In this document: positions 11,594 to 21,117 of the stretch, one piece after another
Numbering within the stretch: the first letter of the stretch is position 1
How the letters are laid out: every line of letters begins with the position of its first letter
UHGV virus genome: UHGV-0299584
Reading direction: 5' to 3' (one strand)
From: a virus
DNA: 29,351 bases
Program-made: the position numbers and the translations under genes
Notes under the pieces: model-generated
Told to the model about the DNA's origin: nothing
What the model saw: the letters and a program-made list of their open reading frames with translations, nothing else
Databases searched by the model: none

Positions 11594-12546
11594 TGGCTGA
11601 TTCGAATCTCAATGAGCCGGTAATCATTCAGGCTACACGACTCGACACATCAGTCCTTCCACGCAATATCTTCTCGCAGTCGTATCTGCTTTACGTTATC
11701 GCACAGGGCACTGATGTTGGTAACGTGGCTAACAAGGCCAACGAAGCAGGGAAGGGGGCTTATGATGCACAGGTGAAGAATGATGAGCAGGATGTCATCC
11801 TTGATGACCATGAATCCAGAATTGAAGCTGCTGAAGCAACTCTCATCAATCATGAACATAGAATTGCAGCAGCGGAAAGCACTCTTGCAGATCATGAAAC
11901 AAGGATTACGGCTGCCGAAACAGAGCTGGCTGATCACGAGACGCGAATTGCTGCCAATGAATCTGAGTTAGCAAACCATGATGCGCGAATAACTCAGAAT
12001 ACAGCCGATATCGGCGCACTTGATACCAGGCTCACAGCGGCAGAGGGAAGTATTTCGACGCTACAAAGCACAGTTGGTGATCACTCAACAAGAATATCTG
12101 CGCTTGAGTATGCCACCACGCGCAAGAAATCAGAGGTTGTTTACTCAGGACTATCGGTAACCATCCCGACAGCGCCGACCAACCTTGTTAGCCTGCTGAA
12201 AACGCTCACGCCGTCATCCGGCACGTTGGCACCATTCTTCGACACCGTTAACAACAAGATGGTTGTGTTCAACGAGAACAAAACCCTGTTCTTCAAGCTG
12301 TCGATTGTCGGGACGTGGCCCAGCGGAACCGCCAACAGGTCAATGCAGCTAACCTTTTCCGGCTCTGTTCCTGACACACTTGTGAGCAGTCGTAATGCGG
12401 CGACAACAACCGACAACATCCTGTTAGCTACGTTCTTCAGCGTGGATAAAGACGGCTTTCTTGCCACAAATGGCAGCACGTTAACCATTCAGTCGAATGG
12501 TGCGGCGTTTACTGCTACAACCATCAAAATCATTGCGGAGCAGTGA
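11593..12546 (+). CDS. Tail needle (P22 gp26-like) with extended coiled coil and C-terminal knob
   Basis: N-terminal ~60 aa ([27 protein letters not shown]...[13 protein letters not shown]) resemble the gp10-binding tip of P22 gp26. Followed by 11-residue-periodic DHExRIxAAE repeats and a ~140-aa beta-rich C-terminal domain, as in Sf6-type needles. Confidence 0.8.
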
Positions 12547-13025
12547 TGGAAATAAAGCTCATCGATAATCCGGTGAAGCTTGCAGAATTCCTCAACAACC
12601 CGGCAAACACGGGAAATATCGTAGACAGTGGAGATAAATACTACATCAAGCCTGATGCGGTATATCTCGGCATCTACGAAGGATTAGTGCTGGCTGGGGT
12701 TCATGAAGTGCGTAACTTCTGGCATAGCGTTGTTGAATGCCATGCTGTGTACGACCCCGGATTCCGTGGCGAATATGCACTGCAAGGGCATCGATTATTC
12801 TGCAAATGGCTTCTCGAAAACTCACCATTCCTTAACAGCATCACCATGGTTCCTGACACCACCAAATACGGACGGGCAATTATCCGTTTGCTTGGCGCTA
12901 CCCGTGTTGGTCACCTTGATGATGCTTATACCAGCAATGGAAAGCCTGTAGGCATCACGATTTATCAGTTACCGCGCTCAAAATACGAGGAGCTAAAGAA
13001 TGTTAATTTTCCAGATTGCCAATAA
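12546..13025 (+). CDS. Putative gp14-like ejection/assembly-associated protein (position-based)
   Basis: 160-aa ORF in the gp14 position; ATG overlaps the needle stop (TGATG). Confidence 0.5.
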   Translation: MEIKLIDNPVKLAEFLNNPANTGNIVDSGDKYYIKPDAVYLGIYEGLVLAGVHEVRNFWHSVVECHAVYDPGFRGEYALQGHRLFCKWLLENSPFLNSITMVPDTTKYGRAIIRLLGATRVGHLDDAYTSNGKPVGITIYQLPRSKYEELKNVNFPDCQ

Positions 13026-13653
13026 GCACCTCAGCAAAGCTGTTTACTGCAAAGGCGGCAGTGATGGCGGTTCAAAAGCCCAGGCACGCGCAACTGAAAA
13101 GGGTATCGAATTGCAGCGTGAAATGTGGCAAACGAACATGCAAAACCTCGCACCGTTCACGCCACTCGCTCAACAGTACGTATCAGAGTTGCAGAATCTT
13201 TCCTCTCTTCAGGGGCAAGGTCAGGCGCTTAACCAGTATTACAACTCCCAGCAGTACAAAGACCTTGCTGGTCAGGCGCGTTACCAGAGTCTGGCAGCAG
13301 CAGAGGCAACTGGTGGATTAGGCTCTACAGCAACAGGAAACCAGTTAGCATCAATCGCACCTACACTCGGTCAAAACTGGCTGTCAGGTCAGATGAACAA
13401 CTACAACAATCTGGCAAATATCGGCCTTGGTGCTCTTACAGGTCAGGCAAACGCCGGACAGAACTACGCTAACAACGTCAGCCAATTGTATCAACAGCAG
13501 GCGGCAGCATCTGCGGCTAATGCGAATAAACCATCAGGATTTCAGAGCGCCTTGAGTGGAGCGGCAGCAGGTGCAGCTGCAGGTACTGCAATCATGCCTG
13601 GTTGGGGTACAGCAATTGGTGCTGGCGTCGGTCTTCTTGGTTCACTTTTTTAA
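13000..13653 (+). CDS. Ejection protein (P22 gp7-like)
   Basis: 217 aa, Q/N/A-rich with a Gly/Ala-rich hydrophobic C-terminus (AAGAAAGTAIMPGWGTAIGAGVGLLGSLF); GAGG RBS. Confidence 0.7.
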   Translation: MLIFQIANKHLSKAVYCKGGSDGGSKAQARATEKGIELQREMWQTNMQNLAPFTPLAQQYVSELQNLSSLQGQGQALNQYYNSQQYKDLAGQARYQSLAAAEATGGLGSTATGNQLASIAPTLGQNWLSGQMNNYNNLANIGLGALTGQANAGQNYANNVSQLYQQQAAASAANANKPSGFQSALSGAAAGAAAGTAIMPGWGTAIGAGVGLLGSLF

Positions 13654-13665
13654 TGGAGGTGTCTC

Positions 13666-14967
13666 TTGGCTACATGGCAACAGGCTGGTAATTCAGGCGC
13701 GCTTCTTGCCGGGTTAGGCGGCATGAACTCCAACGCTCCAAGAGCAAGTGATGCAGACGCCACACTTGCATACATTCGACAGAATAACGAGATGGAGCGT
13801 TCAGGACGTAATAACGTTGGCTTGCAGGCTTTGCAGGGCATTTCATCTGTCATGGATATGTATAAGCAGATGGATCAGCAGAAGCGGCAGCAAGAGTTTC
13901 AGCAGGCTTATGCTGATGCATATACATCTGGTGACCGCGATGCAATGCGAAAACTGGCATCACAGTATCCTGAGCAGTTTGACGCTGTAAGAAACGGCAT
14001 GAAATTTGTCGATGAAGACCAGCGTTCCACTGTCGGTACACTGGCAGCAAGTGCCAGACTCGCAGCTTCATCTCCAGAAGCCATGATGTCATGGTTGCAG
14101 AACAACTCATCTGAGCTTACTCGTGCCGGAGTAGACCCTCTGGATGTGGCGAAAATGTATCAGCAAAATCCACAAGGTTTCACAGAGTTTGTTGATCACC
14201 TTGGAATGGCTGCACTTGGTCCGATTGATTACTTCAATGTTCAGGACAAGATGGCTGGTCGTGAGATTGACCGAGGTAGGCTGGCAGAGACAATCCGCAG
14301 CAATCAGGCTGGCGAGGCACTAACAGCACGAGGTCAGGACATCCAGATACGTGGCCAGAACATCAGCGTACAGAATGCTGCTCTTTCCCGCAAAATACAA
14401 AGAGCAGAATTACAAGAAAAGGCTCTGGACAGACAGATAGCCAGAGAAAGCAATCAGTTAAAGCTTGAAGAGCTAAAGCAGAAACAGGCAGATGTTCGGC
14501 AAAAGGCTGAAATAGCTCGTGCTGACAGACAGGCCGCCGCTCAGGGCGCTGTTGATACGTTCAGCACTGCGCTTGATTCTCTCAACGAGATAGAGCAAAG
14601 CCCTGGACTTTCAAAAGCAGTTGGTATTCGCTCAGCGTTTCCGACAGTTCCTGGATCTGATGCGGCTAACTTTGAAGCAAGACTCGACACCTTTAAAGCT
14701 CAAACTTTCCTCCCTATGGTGCAGTCCCTGAAGGGGATGGGGGCTCTTTCAGATGCTGAGGGTAAAAAATTATCCGATGCGGTTGGTGCTCTAAGTCCCA
14801 AAATGAGTGAAAAGGCTTTTCGTGACTCTATCGGAAAGATTCGAAATCAGCTTGAAAGCAAGTTGAGCACTGTTAAAAAACAGTTTGATTACCAGGAGCC
14901 GGTGCAGAATACGCCAGGACAACAATCTCCTGCTGGCAGTAATTTTTCTTCACTATGGGGTGATTAA
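13666..14967 (+). CDS. Ejection protein (P22 gp20-like)
   Basis: 433 aa; TTG start preceded by a strong GGAGG RBS; stop overlaps the next ATG (TAATG). Confidence 0.75.
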   Translation: MATWQQAGNSGALLAGLGGMNSNAPRASDADATLAYIRQNNEMERSGRNNVGLQALQGISSVMDMYKQMDQQKRQQEFQQAYADAYTSGDRDAMRKLASQYPEQFDAVRNGMKFVDEDQRSTVGTLAASARLAASSPEAMMSWLQNNSSELTRAGVDPLDVAKMYQQNPQGFTEFVDHLGMAALGPIDYFNVQDKMAGREIDRGRLAETIRSNQAGEALTARGQDIQIRGQNISVQNAALSRKIQRAELQEKALDRQIARESNQLKLEELKQKQADVRQKAEIARADRQAAAQGAVDTFSTALDSLNEIEQSPGLSKAVGIRSAFPTVPGSDAANFEARLDTFKAQTFLPMVQSLKGMGALSDAEGKKLSDAVGALSPKMSEKAFRDSIGKIRNQLESKLSTVKKQFDYQEPVQNTPGQQSPAGSNFSSLWGD

Positions 14968-16964
14968 TGGCTAAAGCATGGAAAGATGTTATCGCCTCTC
15001 CACAGTATCAGGCGTTAGCACCAGAACAAAAAGCGCAGGCTCAGGAGCAATACTTCAATGAAGTCGTGGCCCCGCAAGCCGGAGAAAATGCAGAGCAGGC
15101 TAAGCAAGCTTTCTATGCTGCCTATCCATTGCCATCTGTGCAGCAAGTGGAGACACAGCAACCAGTAGCACAGCAACAACCACAGCAAAGTGGATTTATG
15201 TCTGATCTTGGCGAAGCAGTAAAAGAGACTGGTCGCGGACTGGTGCAGGCTGGCGTGAACGTGGCAAACATACCTGCATCAGTTGCCGATGCTGTAACAA
15301 GTGCGGCTGCATGGGCTGGCGGTAAACTCGGCATTGGCGATGGTACATATCAACCAGCGCCACGAGTAACAACGCAGGGATTAGAGCAGGACTTTGGCCT
15401 TCAGCAAGGCGCGCTGACTCCACAAACGACAGAGGGCAGGGTGTTTGCTGAAGCATTGCCTTACCTCACTCCTGCTGGCGTTGAGAGAGCGGCAACACTG
15501 GCACCAACACTTGCTGGTCGAATTGCTCAGGGGGCAACTCGCCTTCTCGCAGAAAACGCAGTTGGATCACTTGCTGCAAACAGTGCGAAAGATGATGCGG
15601 AAGCACTCGCCACCGATTTAGGCGTTGGTGTGCTGGCTGGCGGTGCTATTAACGCTGCCGGACGTGGATTAGGTGCTGCTTATCGTGGTGTTCGTGGTTC
15701 GATAGCACCAGAAGCGCAACAGGCTATCAGATTTGCAGAGCGTGAAGGAGTTCCTCTGCACACCACAGACCTGTTACAACCAACTTCCCGCGTCGGAAAA
15801 ATGGCGCAGACTACAGCAGAAAATATCCCTCTGGCTGGCACAAGCGGAATGAGAGCAACGCAACAGGAAGCGAGAAGCCAGTTGGTGCAGAGATTTGCTG
15901 ATAAATTCGGCGAGTACGATCCGGCAGTTGTTATTGACAGCCTTAAAGCGAAAACATCAGGAATTCGTCGTGCTGCTGGGAACCGTCTTGAGCAGGTACA
16001 GAATGCAATGGCAGGAATCAACATTCAACCTGCCAGAGCAATTCAGCAGATAGATACTGAGATATCTAACCTGCAGAAGCTTGGTAAGGTCGCTGATAAC
16101 GAGACGATTTCAAAACTTCAATCCTATCGTGATGAGCTTGTTCGCAATGCTGGCCCTGATGGTCCGGTAAATCTGGATTTGAAGCAATTAAGCGACCTGC
16201 GCAGTCAGTTCAGAATGGACGTGAAGGGTGAGCGACCAGTGTTACCAAACCGTTCCGATGCCGCCATTCAGCGCGTTTACAAGGCGATGACCGACGATAT
16301 CAATGGTGCCATTGGTCAGAATCTTGGCAACGATACTCTCCGTAAATATCAGCAGGCCAATGCCGTCTACGCTGACGAAGCGGCGAAACTCAAGAATACC
16401 AGGCTGAAGAATGTTCTCATGAAAGGCGATCTGACGCCGGAAGTTGTCAACAACATGCTATTCAGCAAGAACAAATCGGAAATTAAGACGCTGTATAACT
16501 CAGTTGGTCGTGTTGGCAGGACGCAAATGCGCAATGGCATCATTGGAAAGGCGATGGAGAAATCTGGCGGATCCCCTGACCAGTTCCTTCGGCAGCTTAA
16601 CATCCTGCAAAACCAGACTGGCATCACATTTAAGGGGCAGGACGCTGCTTATCTGAAGGGATTAAAAAACTACCTGCAATCCACGCAGCAGGCTGCAAAA
16701 GCGGCAGTAACAACCCCCACAGGGCAGCAAACCATCCCGTTCATTATCGGGTATGGGACGGCAATGAACCCGGCGACAACTGGCGCAGCAGTAAGCTACG
16801 GACTTCTTACTCGCGCCTATGAGAGCGAGCCATTCAGAAATGCAATGCTCCGAATGGCAAACACCCCACGCGGATCAACAGCGTTTGAGAAAGCCATGCA
16901 GCAGGTACAAAAGGCAATTAACGCCCTGACTCAGGGAGCTAAGTCTGATGCGTTGTCAGAATAG
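14967..16964 (+). CDS. Ejection protein (P22 gp16-like)
   Basis: 665 aa, last of the four-gene ejection block before the tailspike; Ala/Gly/Gln-rich. Confidence 0.8.
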   Translation: MAKAWKDVIASPQYQALAPEQKAQAQEQYFNEVVAPQAGENAEQAKQAFYAAYPLPSVQQVETQQPVAQQQPQQSGFMSDLGEAVKETGRGLVQAGVNVANIPASVADAVTSAAAWAGGKLGIGDGTYQPAPRVTTQGLEQDFGLQQGALTPQTTEGRVFAEALPYLTPAGVERAATLAPTLAGRIAQGATRLLAENAVGSLAANSAKDDAEALATDLGVGVLAGGAINAAGRGLGAAYRGVRGSIAPEAQQAIRFAEREGVPLHTTDLLQPTSRVGKMAQTTAENIPLAGTSGMRATQQEARSQLVQRFADKFGEYDPAVVIDSLKAKTSGIRRAAGNRLEQVQNAMAGINIQPARAIQQIDTEISNLQKLGKVADNETISKLQSYRDELVRNAGPDGPVNLDLKQLSDLRSQFRMDVKGERPVLPNRSDAAIQRVYKAMTDDINGAIGQNLGNDTLRKYQQANAVYADEAAKLKNTRLKNVLMKGDLTPEVVNNMLFSKNKSEIKTLYNSVGRVGRTQMRNGIIGKAMEKSGGSPDQFLRQLNILQNQTGITFKGQDAAYLKGLKNYLQSTQQAAKAAVTTPTGQQTIPFIIGYGTAMNPATTGAAVSYGLLTRAYESEPFRNAMLRMANTPRGSTAFEKAMQQVQKAINALTQGAKSDALSE

Positions 16965-17128
16965 CGTTGCAAACACCAGGAACGTGCAAAAACCAAATAT
17001 GTAGAACGCAATATTCAACAGATCTTTTTGCATAGACTCATCTCATAGTTAACAAATCATAACTTACATTAAGGCAATGCCGGGCAAGTTGCATCTTGTT
17101 CCGCATTGCTACGTCTGGAGAAAATTAA

Positions 17129-18790
17129 ATGACAGACATTACAGCCAATGTTGTAGTGAGTATGCCTTCGCAACTCTTCACTATGGCGCGTTCTTTTAAA
17201 GCGGTTGCCAATGGCAAAATTTATATCGGTAAAATTGACGCTGACCCGGTAAATCCTGAAAACCAGATTCAGGTTTATTTAGAGAACGAAGACGGCTCTC
17301 ACGTTCCTGTATCGCAACCAATCATCATTAACGCTGCTGGTTACCCGGTATATAACGGACAGATCGCCAAATTCGTTACTGTACATGGCCATTCTATGGC
17401 TGTTTATGATGCGTACGGTGCTCAGCAGTTCTATTTTCCTAATGTGCTGAAGTACGATCCCGATCAGCTTAGATCACAGATAGAATACGGGCAGTATATT
17501 CACATTCCTGATGGTTATTCACATTATGATGAGTTTGATAATATTCCTCTGAATATATTGGGTGTGGATTATAGTCCTGTTAATGTATATGATGTTTCTT
17601 ATGATGTGTTGACTGGTATATTTAAAGTTTCTGTTCAGAATGCAGATAATTTTCATGTTGGTAAATATTGTATACTTTCTGGCAGGAGAGACATTTCATG
17701 TGGAGCGATGATAATTTCCAAGGATGGAAATGTTTTAACATTGGATATGAGTCACAATGGTATAATTTCAGGCCCGGTTAACGGGGTTGTGGCAAAACCA
17801 ATAAATTCCATAATAAAAACAACAAAAGGAATACAATTTAGATCAAATATATACAGCATAAAAAATGTTGCTATTGAAACAGATGGTGATTACGGACTCA
17901 TTATCGGAGGTGGATACTACCCTGATTCACAATGTGGTAGTTGCGTAGTTTGGGATGCAAACAATTTAATTGTAAATGGAGGCTCTGTTTGTGGAGTTCT
18001 TGTTTCTGGCTCTGGATCTCAGTTTTGTATCAATGAAGTTCATATTACTAACGCAAATATTTCGCTGGAATGTATTTACGCAGCTAGCGTGAAAGGTTTT
18101 TCATTTTCATCATACAATTCAAATGAAGACTCAATTAAGGTTGAGCATGCTTCATCTTGCTATATAAAAGAATTGTCAATTATAAAACCGAAAACTCAGT
18201 CTTGCGTAGCGGCTCGTTATTCATCATCTGTAGAGATATCTGATTGTTATATGGTTGGAAGTGAAGGTTCAGCATTTGCTACCAGCCAATTTTCCTCATA
18301 TTTATCATTAAGAAATATTGTTATGCTAGGGAGCGCAAAATATGCGATAAACTGCGTCGATGGTGCTGTTGTCGCAATAAATAATATCGACGCCTCTTTA
18401 GCTAAAGTGGATTATGGGGTAAGGGTTGAAAAACACTCAGTTTTAAGACAGGTAGGTATAAATAGCAATTTTTCAGGTTCTATTGCCGATTCGCTAATAA
18501 ATAACTCTCATGTTGATTTCAATGATATCGTGTTTTCTGGGAAAAAAATTAAATCAACAATTAATGTTGGTTCAATTAATCCAAACTCTAGATTTTCAAT
18601 TCAGAGGGTAGCTACTGGATATAAAATAGAAAATGAACTTCCAATCAATATGACGGTGTTAGGAGATCTGCCAATAGGGGTTATAACTGATGTATTGGCA
18701 ATATCAGACGACATGATTCGTGTTACATTCCAAAACACTAGCTCATCACCTGTTGATGTTGGCAGTGTTGATGTCATTATAGGATGGTAA
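17129..18790 (+). CDS. Tailspike: conserved head-binding domain fused to a divergent beta-helix receptor-binding domain
   Basis: First ~115 aa ([34 protein letters not shown]...VLKYDPDQ) match the P22/Sf6/HK620 head-binding domain as recalled. The remainder is AT-rich, Ser/Asn/Ile/Gly-rich and shows no recognisable similarity to P22 gp9. GGAG RBS. Confidence 0.85.
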
Positions 18791-18840
18791 TAATACTAAA
18801 AAGTAGATTTATTTTGTAAGTTTTTTATTATTGTTTATAA

Positions 18841-18859
18841 GGCCAAAAAACTTTTGGCC
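18841..18859. terminator. Palindromic hairpin between convergent tailspike and acetyltransferase genes (putative bidirectional terminator)
   Basis: GGCCAAAA-aac-TTTTGGCC, an 8-bp perfect stem in an AT-rich context between two convergent stop codons. Confidence 0.45.
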
Positions 18860-18875
18860 TTATGCTAAATGAGAT

Positions 18876-19469
18876 TTATAGTAATCGCCTATCCCATTTC
18901 ACACCTGTTTTGATTATTTTTGCTGGAGTACCAGCAATAATAATATTGCTTTCAGAAAATTTACCAGTTACAGTTGCCCTTGCGCCAACAATAGTTTCAT
19001 CTGGAATAAAGGCACCTTTCATGATGAGCGCATCAAGACCAATCCAGCACTTATCTCCTATTGATATGTTTTTTGCTGGATTTATCCTGTTTCCATCCAT
19101 ATCTGTTATTGAATGTGAGTCTGTTGTTCTTATTTGAACGCCTGACGCAAACATGCAATTAACACCAATTGAAACACTAGTCCCCTCTTGAATGTTTATA
19201 TTGGTGTTCTGAAAGCTTGTAAGGCTTGATATCACGAGACAGTTCCCATCGCCTCTCATATTTACAGAGCCAACTATAGAACACCTCTCACCGATATTAA
19301 TAGTATTATTATCACCATTTATCAAAATGGATAAATTATGTATTTTTGCATGCTTTTCTATATTTATATGATTGTTCTTTCCATTAATGCGAATAGATAT
19401 TTTTTTTATGTCAGCATCAACATGATTTATAGAGTTATTTTCTCCGGAAATCTGTTTTATTATATCCAT
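18876..19469 (-). CDS. Hexapeptide-repeat (left-handed beta-helix) acetyl/acyltransferase, moron
   Basis: Product shows periodic [LIV]-G-x4 hexads (INIGERCSIVGSVNMRGDGNCLVISS..., ISIGDKCWIGLDALIMKGAFIPDETIVGARATVTG) typical of the LacA/WcaF/CysE-type family. AT-rich; sits between tailspike and int. ATG 19469 preferred over TTG 19481. Confidence 0.7.
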   Translation of the reverse strand: MDIIKQISGENNSINHVDADIKKISIRINGKNNHINIEKHAKIHNLSILINGDNNTINIGERCSIVGSVNMRGDGNCLVISSLTSFQNTNINIQEGTSVSIGVNCMFASGVQIRTTDSHSITDMDGNRINPAKNISIGDKCWIGLDALIMKGAFIPDETIVGARATVTGKFSESNIIIAGTPAKIIKTGVKWDRRLL

Positions 19470-19783
19470 CACTATACTCAATTATTTTGATTGATTTATT
19501 TACAACTTATTAATGTATATGTCATAAATTATATCATAATTTTAATAAAAATCAATATACGAGGTTTTGCATGTATATATTGTAATTTATTGCATATGTT
19601 GATAATAAATTTTATTTGATGCTTAACATAATTATCATGAAATTAGTTATTCAATAACTCTTGTTTTTTAATGTGACAATCACGTTGCTTATATTTAATA
19701 ATGAAACTATATGGTTTTATTATTAAATTTGTGTTTACCTAGATGAATTAATTGTTTTATTTATGATTTTTATCATGGAATCA

Positions 19784-20941
19784 TTAATCCACCTTTTCAT
19801 CAACCCAATCCGCCCACCACTGCATCATTTCTCTGCGCTTATCGAGATACTGAGCATGGTTGTAAATCCCGCGCACAGATCCGCCGTTGGCATGTGCCAG
19901 TTGCGCTTCAATAGCATCAGCAGGCCATTCGTGCTCGTTCATAATCGTGCTGAATTCATGCCTGAATCCGTGACCGCTTTCCAGACCCTCATAGCCGATT
20001 TGTTTGATCACAAGTAGCACCGCGTTCTCGCAGATTGGCTTTTTCTTATCGTTGCGCCCGGCAAAAACAAACTCTGATACTGGTTTGGTGATTGAACTTA
20101 GCGTAGTGAGAAGTTCAACTACCTGGTCTGACATAGGAACCACATGAATTTTGCGTCCCTTCATCACACTGGCGTCGATGGTGATAATCCTGTTTTCAAA
20201 ATCGACGTTCTTCCATAGCATGGAACGAAGCTCTTTCGTTCTTAGGGCTGTGTAGCGTAAAACTTTGGTCGCAATGAGCGATACGATACTTCCTGAAAAT
20301 GTTGCCAGTGCTTTGTTGAATGCCGGGATCTGGTCTGCAGGAAGAAACGGGAAGTTCTTCTTGCGGTATCCCTTCATGGCGTCAGCAAGGTCAGGTGCCG
20401 GGTTATATTTAGCCCTACCAGTGACAATAGCGTAACGGAAAACCTCGCCGCATCTTCTGCGGGCTTTGTTGGCTCGCTCCATTGCACCGCGATCTTCAAA
20501 TCTGCGGATTACTTCCAGTAGTTGCATCGGCTCAATATCCTGAATTTCAAGACCGCCGATGATGGGTAAAATGTCGTCATCAAACATTTTTGCAAGTTCA
20601 TTTGCATAGCCTACTGACCAGACTTGCTTCTTGTGCTCGTACCATTCCTTGTAAATGGCGCTAAAGGAATTGTTGTTAGACGAAGCCTTTTTCGCCTTTA
20701 CCGGATCGATGCCAACCGAGATGTCTTTCCTCGCAGTCCATGCTTTATCCCTTGCCTCTTGCAAAGTCATAAGCGGATATTTTCCGACGGTCAGTATTTT
20801 CTCCTTACCGTCAATCTTGTAGCGAAGCTGCCATACCTTTTTCCCTGACACAGGGACATAAAGGTACAGGCCATTACCATCGAGTAGGCGGTATGGTTTT
20901 TCTTTCGGTTTTGCTGCTTCAATCTGCTTAACGGTGAGCAT
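19784..20941 (-). CDS. int: Tyrosine integrase (P4-like family)
   Basis: Product has the typical N-terminal arm (LTVKQIEAAKPKEKPYRLLDGNGLYLYV) and C-terminal catalytic region (...HGFRHEFSTIM..., ...RGIYNHAQYLDKRREMMQWWADW). Start ATG 20941, or GTG 20977 as in the ORF track. Confidence 0.9.
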   Translation of the reverse strand: MLTVKQIEAAKPKEKPYRLLDGNGLYLYVPVSGKKVWQLRYKIDGKEKILTVGKYPLMTLQEARDKAWTARKDISVGIDPVKAKKASSNNNSFSAIYKEWYEHKKQVWSVGYANELAKMFDDDILPIIGGLEIQDIEPMQLLEVIRRFEDRGAMERANKARRRCGEVFRYAIVTGRAKYNPAPDLADAMKGYRKKNFPFLPADQIPAFNKALATFSGSIVSLIATKVLRYTALRTKELRSMLWKNVDFENRIITIDASVMKGRKIHVVPMSDQVVELLTTLSSITKPVSEFVFAGRNDKKKPICENAVLLVIKQIGYEGLESGHGFRHEFSTIMNEHEWPADAIEAQLAHANGGSVRGIYNHAQYLDKRREMMQWWADWVDEKVD

Positions 20942-20986
20942 GGGTAAAAATCCGGTGGGTAAAATTATTTTATCCACTTTTTACCC
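20942..20986. repeat. Cluster of TTTTACCC / GGGTAAAA octamers (putative arm-type Int-binding sites)
   Basis: GGGTAAAA at 20942-20949 and 20957-20964; TTTTACCC at 20979-20986, read directly. Confidence 0.4.
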
Positions 20987-21102: not shown

Positions 21103-21117
21103 TGGTGTCCCCTGCAG
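21103..21117 (-). other. attP core: 15-nt identity to the 3' end of tRNA-Arg (argW), flanked by an 8-bp inverted repeat
   Basis: The - strand reads CTGCAGGGGACACCA, matching the acceptor-stem/CCA end of E. coli argW from memory. TCCCCTGC (21108-21115) and GCAGGGGA (21134-21141) form a perfect inverted repeat; phage genes lie on both sides. Confidence 0.6.

Follow-up and report, generated by a model that had tools for sequence, protein, structure and literature searches.

The window analysed here is the whole stretch of 29,351 nucleotides (nt) of the viral genome UHGV-0299584, and the gene in question is its tailspike gene, which encodes a protein of 553 amino acids (aa). This gene is a mosaic, far beyond what chance would produce, of a conserved P22-type head-binding domain and a foreign AT-rich receptor-binding module. 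The exchanged unit extends beyond the receptor-binding domain alone: it is a 2.3-kb cassette that also carries an O-acetyltransferase gene and that exactly replaces the endorhamnosidase and oac genes of phage Sf6. We lean towards reading it as a CUS-3-like cassette, in which a capsule depolymerase would be combined with a capsule-acetylating enzyme. That tailspikes exchange their receptor domains as modules is textbook knowledge, so the mosaic as such is ordinary; a literature search revealed no prior description of the cassette.

The mosaic tailspike and its receptor-binding module

A Pfam search with the tailspike sequence showed that residues 1-113 cover the whole Head_binding profile (PF09008, positions 1-113 of 113; E 3.1e-66), and a sequence search of the PDB aligned residues 1-117 with the N-terminal structures solved for the Sf6 and P22 tailspikes (7sg7, E 3.8e-63; 8tvr, 2xc1, 1lkt). 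A preliminary description of the window, made from its letters alone, had assigned the first ~115 residues to a head-binding domain of the P22/Sf6/HK620 type, and both searches bear this out. Megablast against 50,697 phage records detected 28 matches with 83-94% nt identity, among them HK620, CUS-3, Sf6 and epsilon34, all restricted to the first ~340-357 nt of the gene; the same short 5' stretch was matched in 1,116 of 5,426 complete Escherichia coli genomes. The RefSeq label for the tailspike in E. coli 1190, a lysogen described below, is 'phage head-binding domain-containing protein'. Docking of the spike to the P22/Sf6 tail through the head-binding trimer is established by solved structures, and residues 1-113 are the trimeric adaptor which plugs the spike into the tail hub. 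The gene is placed after three ejection-protein genes of a P22-type virion module.

Blastn homology to Sf6, HK620 and CUS-3 ends at nt 17467 in all three cases, which places the break at codon 113/114, directly after ...YDPDQL. The G+C fraction (GC) is 0.438 in the head-binding part and 0.349 in the rest of the gene, and at third codon positions (GC3) the values are 0.43 and 0.24, respectively. All 2,441 of 2,441 segments of 1,317 nt taken outside the cassette have a GC of at least 0.410 (mean 0.484, standard deviation 0.026), so that the module has a z value of -5.1. The low-GC tract runs past the end of the open reading frame (ORF), to nt 19787. Residues 116-553 are richest in Ser (13.2%), Ile (11.6%), Val (10.5%), Gly (8.7%) and Asn (7.8%). 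The preliminary description had called this part Ser/Asn/Ile/Gly-rich, with which the composition agrees, and had let the AT-rich sequence begin at about nt 17500; the break is real, but lies slightly to the left, at nt 17467. The sharp join of a conserved adaptor to a foreign AT-rich module also supports its view of a host-range recombination junction. A uniform similarity to one known tailspike, lacking any break in composition, was looked for and is not the case.

An abrupt change in GC, taken alone, might also mark a prophage in decay or a chimeric assembly, in which case the break would be artefactual. This is exceedingly improbable. The ORF and every neighbouring virion gene are intact, the identical protein was traced in 86 blocks of independent public assemblies as well as in IMG/VR and metagenome contigs, and identical junctions are present in a complete chromosome, IMG/VR contigs and metagenomes; because of this independent recurrence we exclude an artefact. 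The gene encodes an intact and, by prediction, functional tailspike in which exchangeable modules are combined; the phage is temperate and Sf6-like (Lederbergvirus, P22-type).

In a domain-wise search, residues 1-113 were matched as head-binding and residues 116-553 remained unmatched: they revealed no match in Pfam, PHROGs, NCBIfam or, used as a single sequence and as an 8-sequence profile, the PDB, and tblastn revealed none among the 50,697 phage genomes. Searches by phmmer, PDB profile and tblastn detected no sequence homology to the beta-helix families of P22 gp9, Sf6 gp14 and HK620 gp9 past residue ~117. The lack of recognisable similarity noted earlier for P22 gp9 thus extends to the other solved or annotated tailspikes. 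No Pfam hit of the protein to a curated Beta_helix or Pect-lyase model was obtained at E <= 1, whereas a match was found at the level of the fold. A distant relative (P0008) has a Beta_helix hit just under the cut-off, with 25.3 bits against 25.9.

Structure prediction was carried out with AlphaFold2 on the monomer. An alignment of 3 sequences gave an unusable model with a predicted local distance difference test (pLDDT) of 50.5, whereas 8 homologues gave a pLDDT of 87.4 and a predicted template modelling score (pTM) of 0.78. The secondary structure assigned by DSSP on this model consists of an N-terminal beta subdomain (~aa 116-215), ~9-10 rungs of a right-handed beta-helix with a period of ~24 residues (~aa 220-465) and a C-terminal beta-sandwich (~aa 470-553). 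A pectate-lyase-like beta-helix had been anticipated, and a right-handed parallel beta-helix was indeed found; no curated pectate-lyase-type sequence model matched. The leading Foldseek matches are the Klebsiella K1 capsule lyase (7w1c, E 5e-11), LKA1 gp49 and AP22 gp54, and the Sf6 and HK620 tailspikes were also matched; the best viral model in BFVD is the coliphage IMM-002 tail fibre (TMq 0.59). Aligned with the Klebsiella K1 lyase 7w1c, CBA120 TSP2, AS12 gp42, Andhra gp15 and the K5 lyase, the module shows 6-14% identity, and they have no common family model. By adaptor, gene position and fold the protein is a member of the P22-like tailspike family, and it stands outside the receptor-domain sequence families of P22, Sf6 and HK620.

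All eight homologues, with identities down to only 30%, have the same eleven polar residues in the helix (D334, K337, E339, Y345, R363, Y364, E369, Q387, Y391, R395 and D411), and several of these repeat at the rung spacing of ~24. In the model, the invariant row of acidic, basic and aromatic residues on successive rungs (D334, K337, E339, R363/Y364, E369, Q387, R395, D411) is the probable substrate groove. Residues 114-553 form a right-handed beta-helix module, predicted to bind polysaccharide and most likely a depolymerase, of a rare, unannotated family. A known glycosidase or lyase family motif was not found, and the beta-helix fold also occurs in the adhesins Vag8, pertactin and PfbA, as would suit a module for binding only, which leaves a surface glycan or protein uncleaved, or one that targets colanic acid, enterobacterial common antigen or similar, with the acetyltransferase as an unrelated moron gene. 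We consider this quite improbable: the leading structural neighbours are mostly enzymatically active tailspikes or depolymerases, eleven invariant polar residues, several of them at ~24-residue spacing, form a pattern typical of a catalytic groove, and the strict linkage of acetyltransferase and spike across phage backbones argues for a common target.

Relatives of the tailspike are few. A word-indexed search of 5.8 billion proteins revealed 3 clusters (100%, 77% and 60% identity), and an exhaustive HMMER scan of 1.84 billion representatives revealed 7 proteins (77-30% identity). No relative was detected among 185,579 species-representative genomes, a metagenome scan added one further identical copy only, and among the 5,426 complete E. 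coli genomes the exact tailspike is present in strain 1190 only. The module would represent a new predicted depolymerase family, nearly free of relatives, and its clear boundaries would make it usable for spike engineering or as a typing reagent.

Comparison with the variant of 77% identity (P0002) revealed a second junction. Protein identity is 99% over aa 116-297 and 62% over aa 298-553; at the nt level the P0002-type gene (L003) is 98-100% identical over nt 17459-17998 and ~55-70% from 18059 on. As the identity falls abruptly at ~nt 18025, we place a further breakpoint there, inside the beta-helix and following the VSGSGSQF motif (aa ~299/300). In its C-terminal half P0002 is nearer to another relative, P0003 (76%), than to the window protein, and the invariant polar residues all lie downstream of the breakpoint. 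The P0002 variant is found in P22-like phages which retain sieA/mnt/arc/ant and have no acetyltransferase, the spike being followed by a 98-aa ORF and a P22-type int; this indicates that the window-type C-terminal helix half and the acetyltransferase travel together. The 98-aa ORF is hydrophobic, overlaps the spike stop codon and occupies the acetyltransferase slot (L015 7308-7604); it may represent another type of conversion or exclusion gene.

The module has also been joined to other adaptors. In P0003 (L002 749-2461) a module of 60% identity stands behind a Tail_spike_N adaptor (PF18668) of the CBA120 TSP1/Gp66 type, and the similarity to the window protein starts at the same 'LR', which implies that the module is exchanged between unrelated tail architectures. 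P0004-P0008 carry it behind other, unannotated N-termini. One of these, P0006 (L008 5792-7672; 30% identical), belongs to a siphovirus-like tail gene cluster on a contig with a GC of 0.62, and this setting extends the family to long-tailed phages of an unrelated high-GC host. P0006 is preceded by tape-measure and Phage-tail_3 genes and followed by an Amidase_2-LysM lysin gene.

The cassette and its O-acetyltransferase

Homology to Sf6 resumes at nt 19791 and homology to CUS-3 at nt 19788. We conclude that recombination at two conserved anchors, the head-binding domain on one side and the 3' end of int on the other, brought the cassette in. It is present at 98.7-100% identity on at least 3 phage backbones and at 2 integration sites, either in argW with IntS or beside dacD with another integrase. 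The 197-aa form of the acetyltransferase gene lies behind the exact tailspike in 8 of the 8 places listed, and these places vary in their scaffold, capsid, needle and ejection genes. The dacD-type copies retain 60 nt of the intS 3' end (homology to 19844), a relic suggestive of descent from an argW-type phage. The copies beside dacD/sbmC in P22-like prophages (L009-L011 and L028, ~12342-13300 in locus coordinates) are located ~20 kb from the O-antigen/his region.

The acetyltransferase belongs to the soluble left-handed beta-helix (hexapeptide) enzymes of the NeuO/OatWY kind. A PDB sequence search aligned it over its full length with OatWY (2wlc, E 6e-31; residues 12-200 with 9-199) and also detected NeuO (3jqy, E 2e-20), whereas the matches to maltose and galactoside acetyltransferases are much poorer (E 1e-13 and weaker). 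Its identity with CUS-3 NeuO is 33%. In RefSeq and in P0009 the start is the ATG at 19469, which gives 197 aa. NeuO and OatWY have six active-site residues in common (PMC3046976). Five of these are kept, M110, H123, W146, W196 and R198 corresponding to Met108, His121, Trp145, Trp195 and Arg197 of OatWY; the sixth (OatWY Arg148, which forms an intersubunit salt bridge) is not, and Leu149 is aligned with it.

The closest non-phage homologues are P0010 and P0011 (52% identity) and P0012 (70% over a partial match), and all are located in capsule-synthesis loci. In two of these loci (L020 and L021) the order is a Capsule_synth gene of the KpsC/S family, the acetyltransferase homologue and a gene for a 529-aa tetratricopeptide repeat (TPR) protein; in the third (L022) it is Capsule_synth, a glycosyltransferase family 1 (GT1) gene, the homologue and a KdsA-like DAHP_synth_1 gene.

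The features of the region are listed in Table 1. The hairpin between the convergent genes is likely, judged from its bases, to form the transcript end for both of them; the consensus terminator scan left it uncalled because it has no T-run. The AT-rich spacer contains the best sigma-70-like site of the region, TTGATT-16-TATAAT with TG (19555->19528, minus strand), a weak call, and the promoter and terminator scans were at chance level (16 sites, 15.5 expected). Tandem repeats were not found within 16900-20000. Homology of the window to the E. coli 1190 chromosome ends at attP, so the window is in the excised or vegetative order (tailspike, acetyltransferase, int, attP, xis-like ORF, early genes) and not in prophage order. 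The homology of a metagenome contig (L019) likewise ends at the attP core.

Upstream of the tailspike lies a gp16-type ejection gene (14967..16964). The last ejection protein is mosaic among carriers of one and the same cassette, with 665 aa in the window and Sf6 against 797 aa in E. coli 1190; the 797-aa protein (L001 17443-19836) is annotated as a lytic transglycosylase, and its homology to the window begins only at 15183.

Table 1. Location of the tailspike gene, the cassette and their surroundings in the window (aa, amino acids; bp, base pairs)
Feature	Position	Strand	Basis
Intergenic gap between gp16-like ejection gene and tailspike, 164 bp, without immI genes	16965..17128	+	Part of continuous Sf6 match
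Tailspike coding sequence, 553 aa	17129..18790	+	Listed ORF; ATG start with GGAG upstream
Head-binding (virion adaptor) domain, aa 1-113	17129..17467	+	Pfam, PDB and nt matches
Receptor-binding module, aa 114-553	17468..18787	+	Subdomains by DSSP periodicity on model
Whole low-GC host-range/conversion cassette, 2,320 bp, GC 0.320	17468..19787	.	Head-binding domain to integrase stop codon
Second recombination breakpoint, after VSGSGSQF (aa ~299/300)	18020..18030	+	Identity drop against P0002-type gene (L003)
Inverted repeat, perfect 10-bp stem, 3-nt loop, AAGGCCAAAA-AAC-TTTTGGCCTT	18841..18863	.	Read from sequence, between convergent genes
Soluble left-handed beta-helix (hexapeptide) O-acetyltransferase, NeuO/OatWY kind	18876..19481	-	201 aa from TTG; PDB matches
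AT-rich spacer, 302 bp, GC 0.185, 5' of acetyltransferase	19482..19783	-	Sequence composition
IntS-type integrase, right-hand anchor	19784..20977	-	Pfam domains; 97-98% nt identity to Sf6 and CUS-3 int
attP core TGGTGTCCCCTGCAG, identical to 3' end of tRNA-Arg (argW)	21103..21117	.	Homology to E. coli 1190 chromosome ends within annotated tRNA-Arg

The probable polysaccharide target

The preliminary description held that the receptor cannot be identified from the sequence. This stands for the tailspike taken alone; the genomic context, however, yields two candidates, capsule and O antigen, and favours the capsule. Typing of O and K loci covers one lysogen, E. coli 1190 (canine, Edinburgh), the only one with a complete genome, which carries the cassette at 99.9-100% identity. 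Its O-antigen cluster is annotated as O166 with a wzx/wzy pathway, and it has a group 2 kps locus at pheV. Region 2 of this locus consists of galE and the genes for a 781-aa 'beta-Kdo transferase' (Kdo, 3-deoxy-D-manno-oct-2-ulosonic acid) and a 655-aa GT1 enzyme. The former, described as a bifunctional transferase, combines a Capsule_synth domain with a weak GT29-like domain. Kdo in the repeat unit correlates with GT99/GT107-like domains in region 2 (PMC13171606). Region 2 of the 1190 K locus contains no acetyltransferase gene, and related capsule loci of other bacteria hold a homologous acetyltransferase within the locus.

This K locus was found in 4 of the 5,426 complete E. coli genomes, 1190 having it in common with NA3664, OY754421 and M22546, and O166 in 18 of them. 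Three of the four K-locus strains are O166; E. coli 1190 and NA3664 combine O166 with the rare K locus, M22546 has the same K locus and is not O166, and 15 O166 genomes are without it. The K locus is unnamed (L007 20391-25767, positions 860390-865766 of the E. coli 1190 record), and its region 2 has a GC of 0.307. K14, a GalNAc-Kdo type (GalNAc, N-acetylgalactosamine), was considered as the capsule of the lysogen. It was rejected, as K14 ranks with the most common K types (PMC13171606), whereas region 2 of the lysogen was found in only 4 of 5,426 genomes. Sialic acid as acceptor likewise found no support: the O166 cluster and kps region 2 of the lysogen both lack neu genes, and as its O and K loci hold no sialic-acid synthesis genes, the acceptor is probably not sialic acid.

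The capsule loci around the chromosomal acetyltransferase homologues are related to the K locus of the lysogen. In L020 the ORF upstream of the homologue matches residues 139-375 of the 781-aa protein (44% identity, E 5e-66) and the downstream ORF matches residues 368-739 (35%, E 2e-62), and L021 matches it with 48% identity. The lysogen's capsule transferase thus has a split counterpart in these loci, with the acetyltransferase homologue between its two parts. In these uncultured loci (L020 1-3028, L021 1-1764) either the gene was split by an insertion or the 781-aa version of E. coli is a fusion. A blastn search with L020 in the 5,426 E. coli genomes matched only the 1190-type K-locus gene and the phage acetyltransferase.

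From this context we infer that the spike would recognise and cleave the ATP-binding cassette (ABC)-transporter-type, or group 2, capsule of the host; in the typed lysogen the target would be the rare K type with a KpsC/S-like enzyme (of the Kdo-transferase type) encoded in region 2. Once lysogeny is established, the acetyltransferase would add O-acetyl groups to this polymer in the cytoplasm, the compartment in which group 2 capsules are polymerised and are accessible to a soluble acetyltransferase. An enzyme that is soluble and cytoplasmic fits a polymer made in that compartment, as is established for NeuO with the K1 capsule (PMC3046976). By analogy with NeuO on the P22-like K1 prophage CUS-3, the acetylation would alter the K antigen and probably shield the lysogen from related phages. 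The breakpoint at aa ~300 would tie the residue-conserving C-terminal helix half to the acetyltransferase and may tune the tolerance of the spike to acetylation. Conversion genes beside P22-like tailspikes modify the polysaccharide of the spike (Sf6 oac; CUS-3 neuO; PMC3046976), and a P22-like prophage tailspike of E. coli O104:H4 is specific for the polysaccharide of its own lysogen (PMC3303846).

Several points weigh against a capsule as target. The gene orientation is that of Sf6 oac and not that of CUS-3 neuO. Most characterised P22-like tailspikes target O antigens, and O-unit intermediates too are substrates of hexapeptide acetyltransferases such as WbbJ, the best NCBIfam hit of the cassette enzyme (E 1e-15), though far under the cut-off (57.7 bits with a cut-off of 243). 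Close homologues of the enzyme occur in Firmicutes and Bacteroidota, so that a preference for ulosonic acids is not established. Capsule and O antigen are inseparable by association because the sole typed lysogen carries both a rare K type and the rare O166; its K type is unnamed, with a chemistry derived from annotation. The catalytic residues are putative and the structure model is that of a monomer.

In the main rival reading the spike would be an endoglycosidase that acts on the O antigen, that of E. coli O166 or one with a related O unit, like the spikes of P22, Sf6 and HK620, and O-unit acetylation at the cytoplasmic face by the hexapeptide enzyme would be a case of classical seroconversion. 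The sole complete-genome lysogen is O166, the layout is identical to that of Sf6, whose spike and oac are both directed at the O antigen, and the O-antigen specificity of most P22-like spikes, the O104 prophage spike included (PMC3303846), as well as the WbbJ hit would fit. The acetyltransferase is, however, far nearer to OatWY and NeuO than to WbbJ, and its closest chromosomal homologues are found in ABC-transporter-type capsule loci related to the K locus of the lysogen, not in wzx/wzy clusters. The known phage O-antigen acetylases are membrane proteins of the acyltransferase-3 type (Sf6 Oac), whereas the cassette enzyme is soluble, and the cassette is absent from the 17 other O166 complete genomes. 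We consider an O166 target unlikely, though with an appreciable chance of being correct.

The capsule reading has a more specific form, to which we give a little less than even chances: the cassette would be a second, independent instance of the CUS-3 strategy, a new beta-helix depolymerase family for a rare Kdo-transferase-type group 2 capsule of E. coli, tied to a cytoplasmic O-acetyltransferase of the prophage which would convert this K antigen in trans, the catalytic helix half and the acetyltransferase being swapped together. The swap at aa ~300 would then match the specificity of the spike to the acetylation state, and prophage-borne capsule acetyltransferases could explain K-serotype differences beyond kps-locus typing. 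The K serotypes K18 and K22 differ in acetylation only and have identical kps loci (PMC13171606). The prediction is a temperate P22-like phage other than CUS-3 which targets and then acetylates a group 2 capsule.

Comparison with known phages

The architecture is specifically the Sf6 one, with continuous 88% nt identity over 13138-17467 (gp20, the 665-aa gp16, the 164-bp gap and the head-binding domain) and 97% from 19791 on (int). Both have the tailspike, the convergent acetyltransferase and int in the same order and orientation, and attP in argW; Sf6 has its annotated endorhamnosidase, terminator, oac and oac promoter at the equivalent place and orientation. In contrast, the Sf6 endorhamnosidase is without sequence similarity to the window module, and Oac is a membrane protein of 333 aa, whereas the enzyme of the cassette is a soluble hexapeptide protein of 197-201 aa.

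P22 gp9 and HK620 gp9 show no similarity after residue ~117 and are longer, P22 gp9 having 667 aa and the HK620 gene 2,133 nt, as compared with 553 aa here. The preliminary description correctly gave 164 bp between the last ejection gene and the tailspike and stated that the immI block is absent as in genomes of the Sf6/HK620 type. It is absent as in Sf6; HK620, unlike the window, has ~1.1 kb of hkc genes and immI remnants upstream of its tailspike. The likeness of the acetyltransferase to OatWY and NeuO covers the full length and includes the catalytic His and Trp; the difference is the Leu at the equivalent of Arg148.

CUS-3 has the same layout, in which a receptor module and a hexapeptide acetyltransferase of the NeuO family fill the slot between the head-binding domain (91% nt identity to the window) and an argW-type integrase (98%). 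It differs in its 981-aa endosialidase spike, in keeping mnt/ant and in the low identity of NeuO. Its neuO gene is co-oriented with the spike and phase-variable through AAGACTC heptanucleotide repeats, whereas the cassette gene lies on the other strand and is without repeats. By analogy, we propose CUS-3, with its capsule depolymerase and capsule O-acetylation, as the functional analogue of the cassette.

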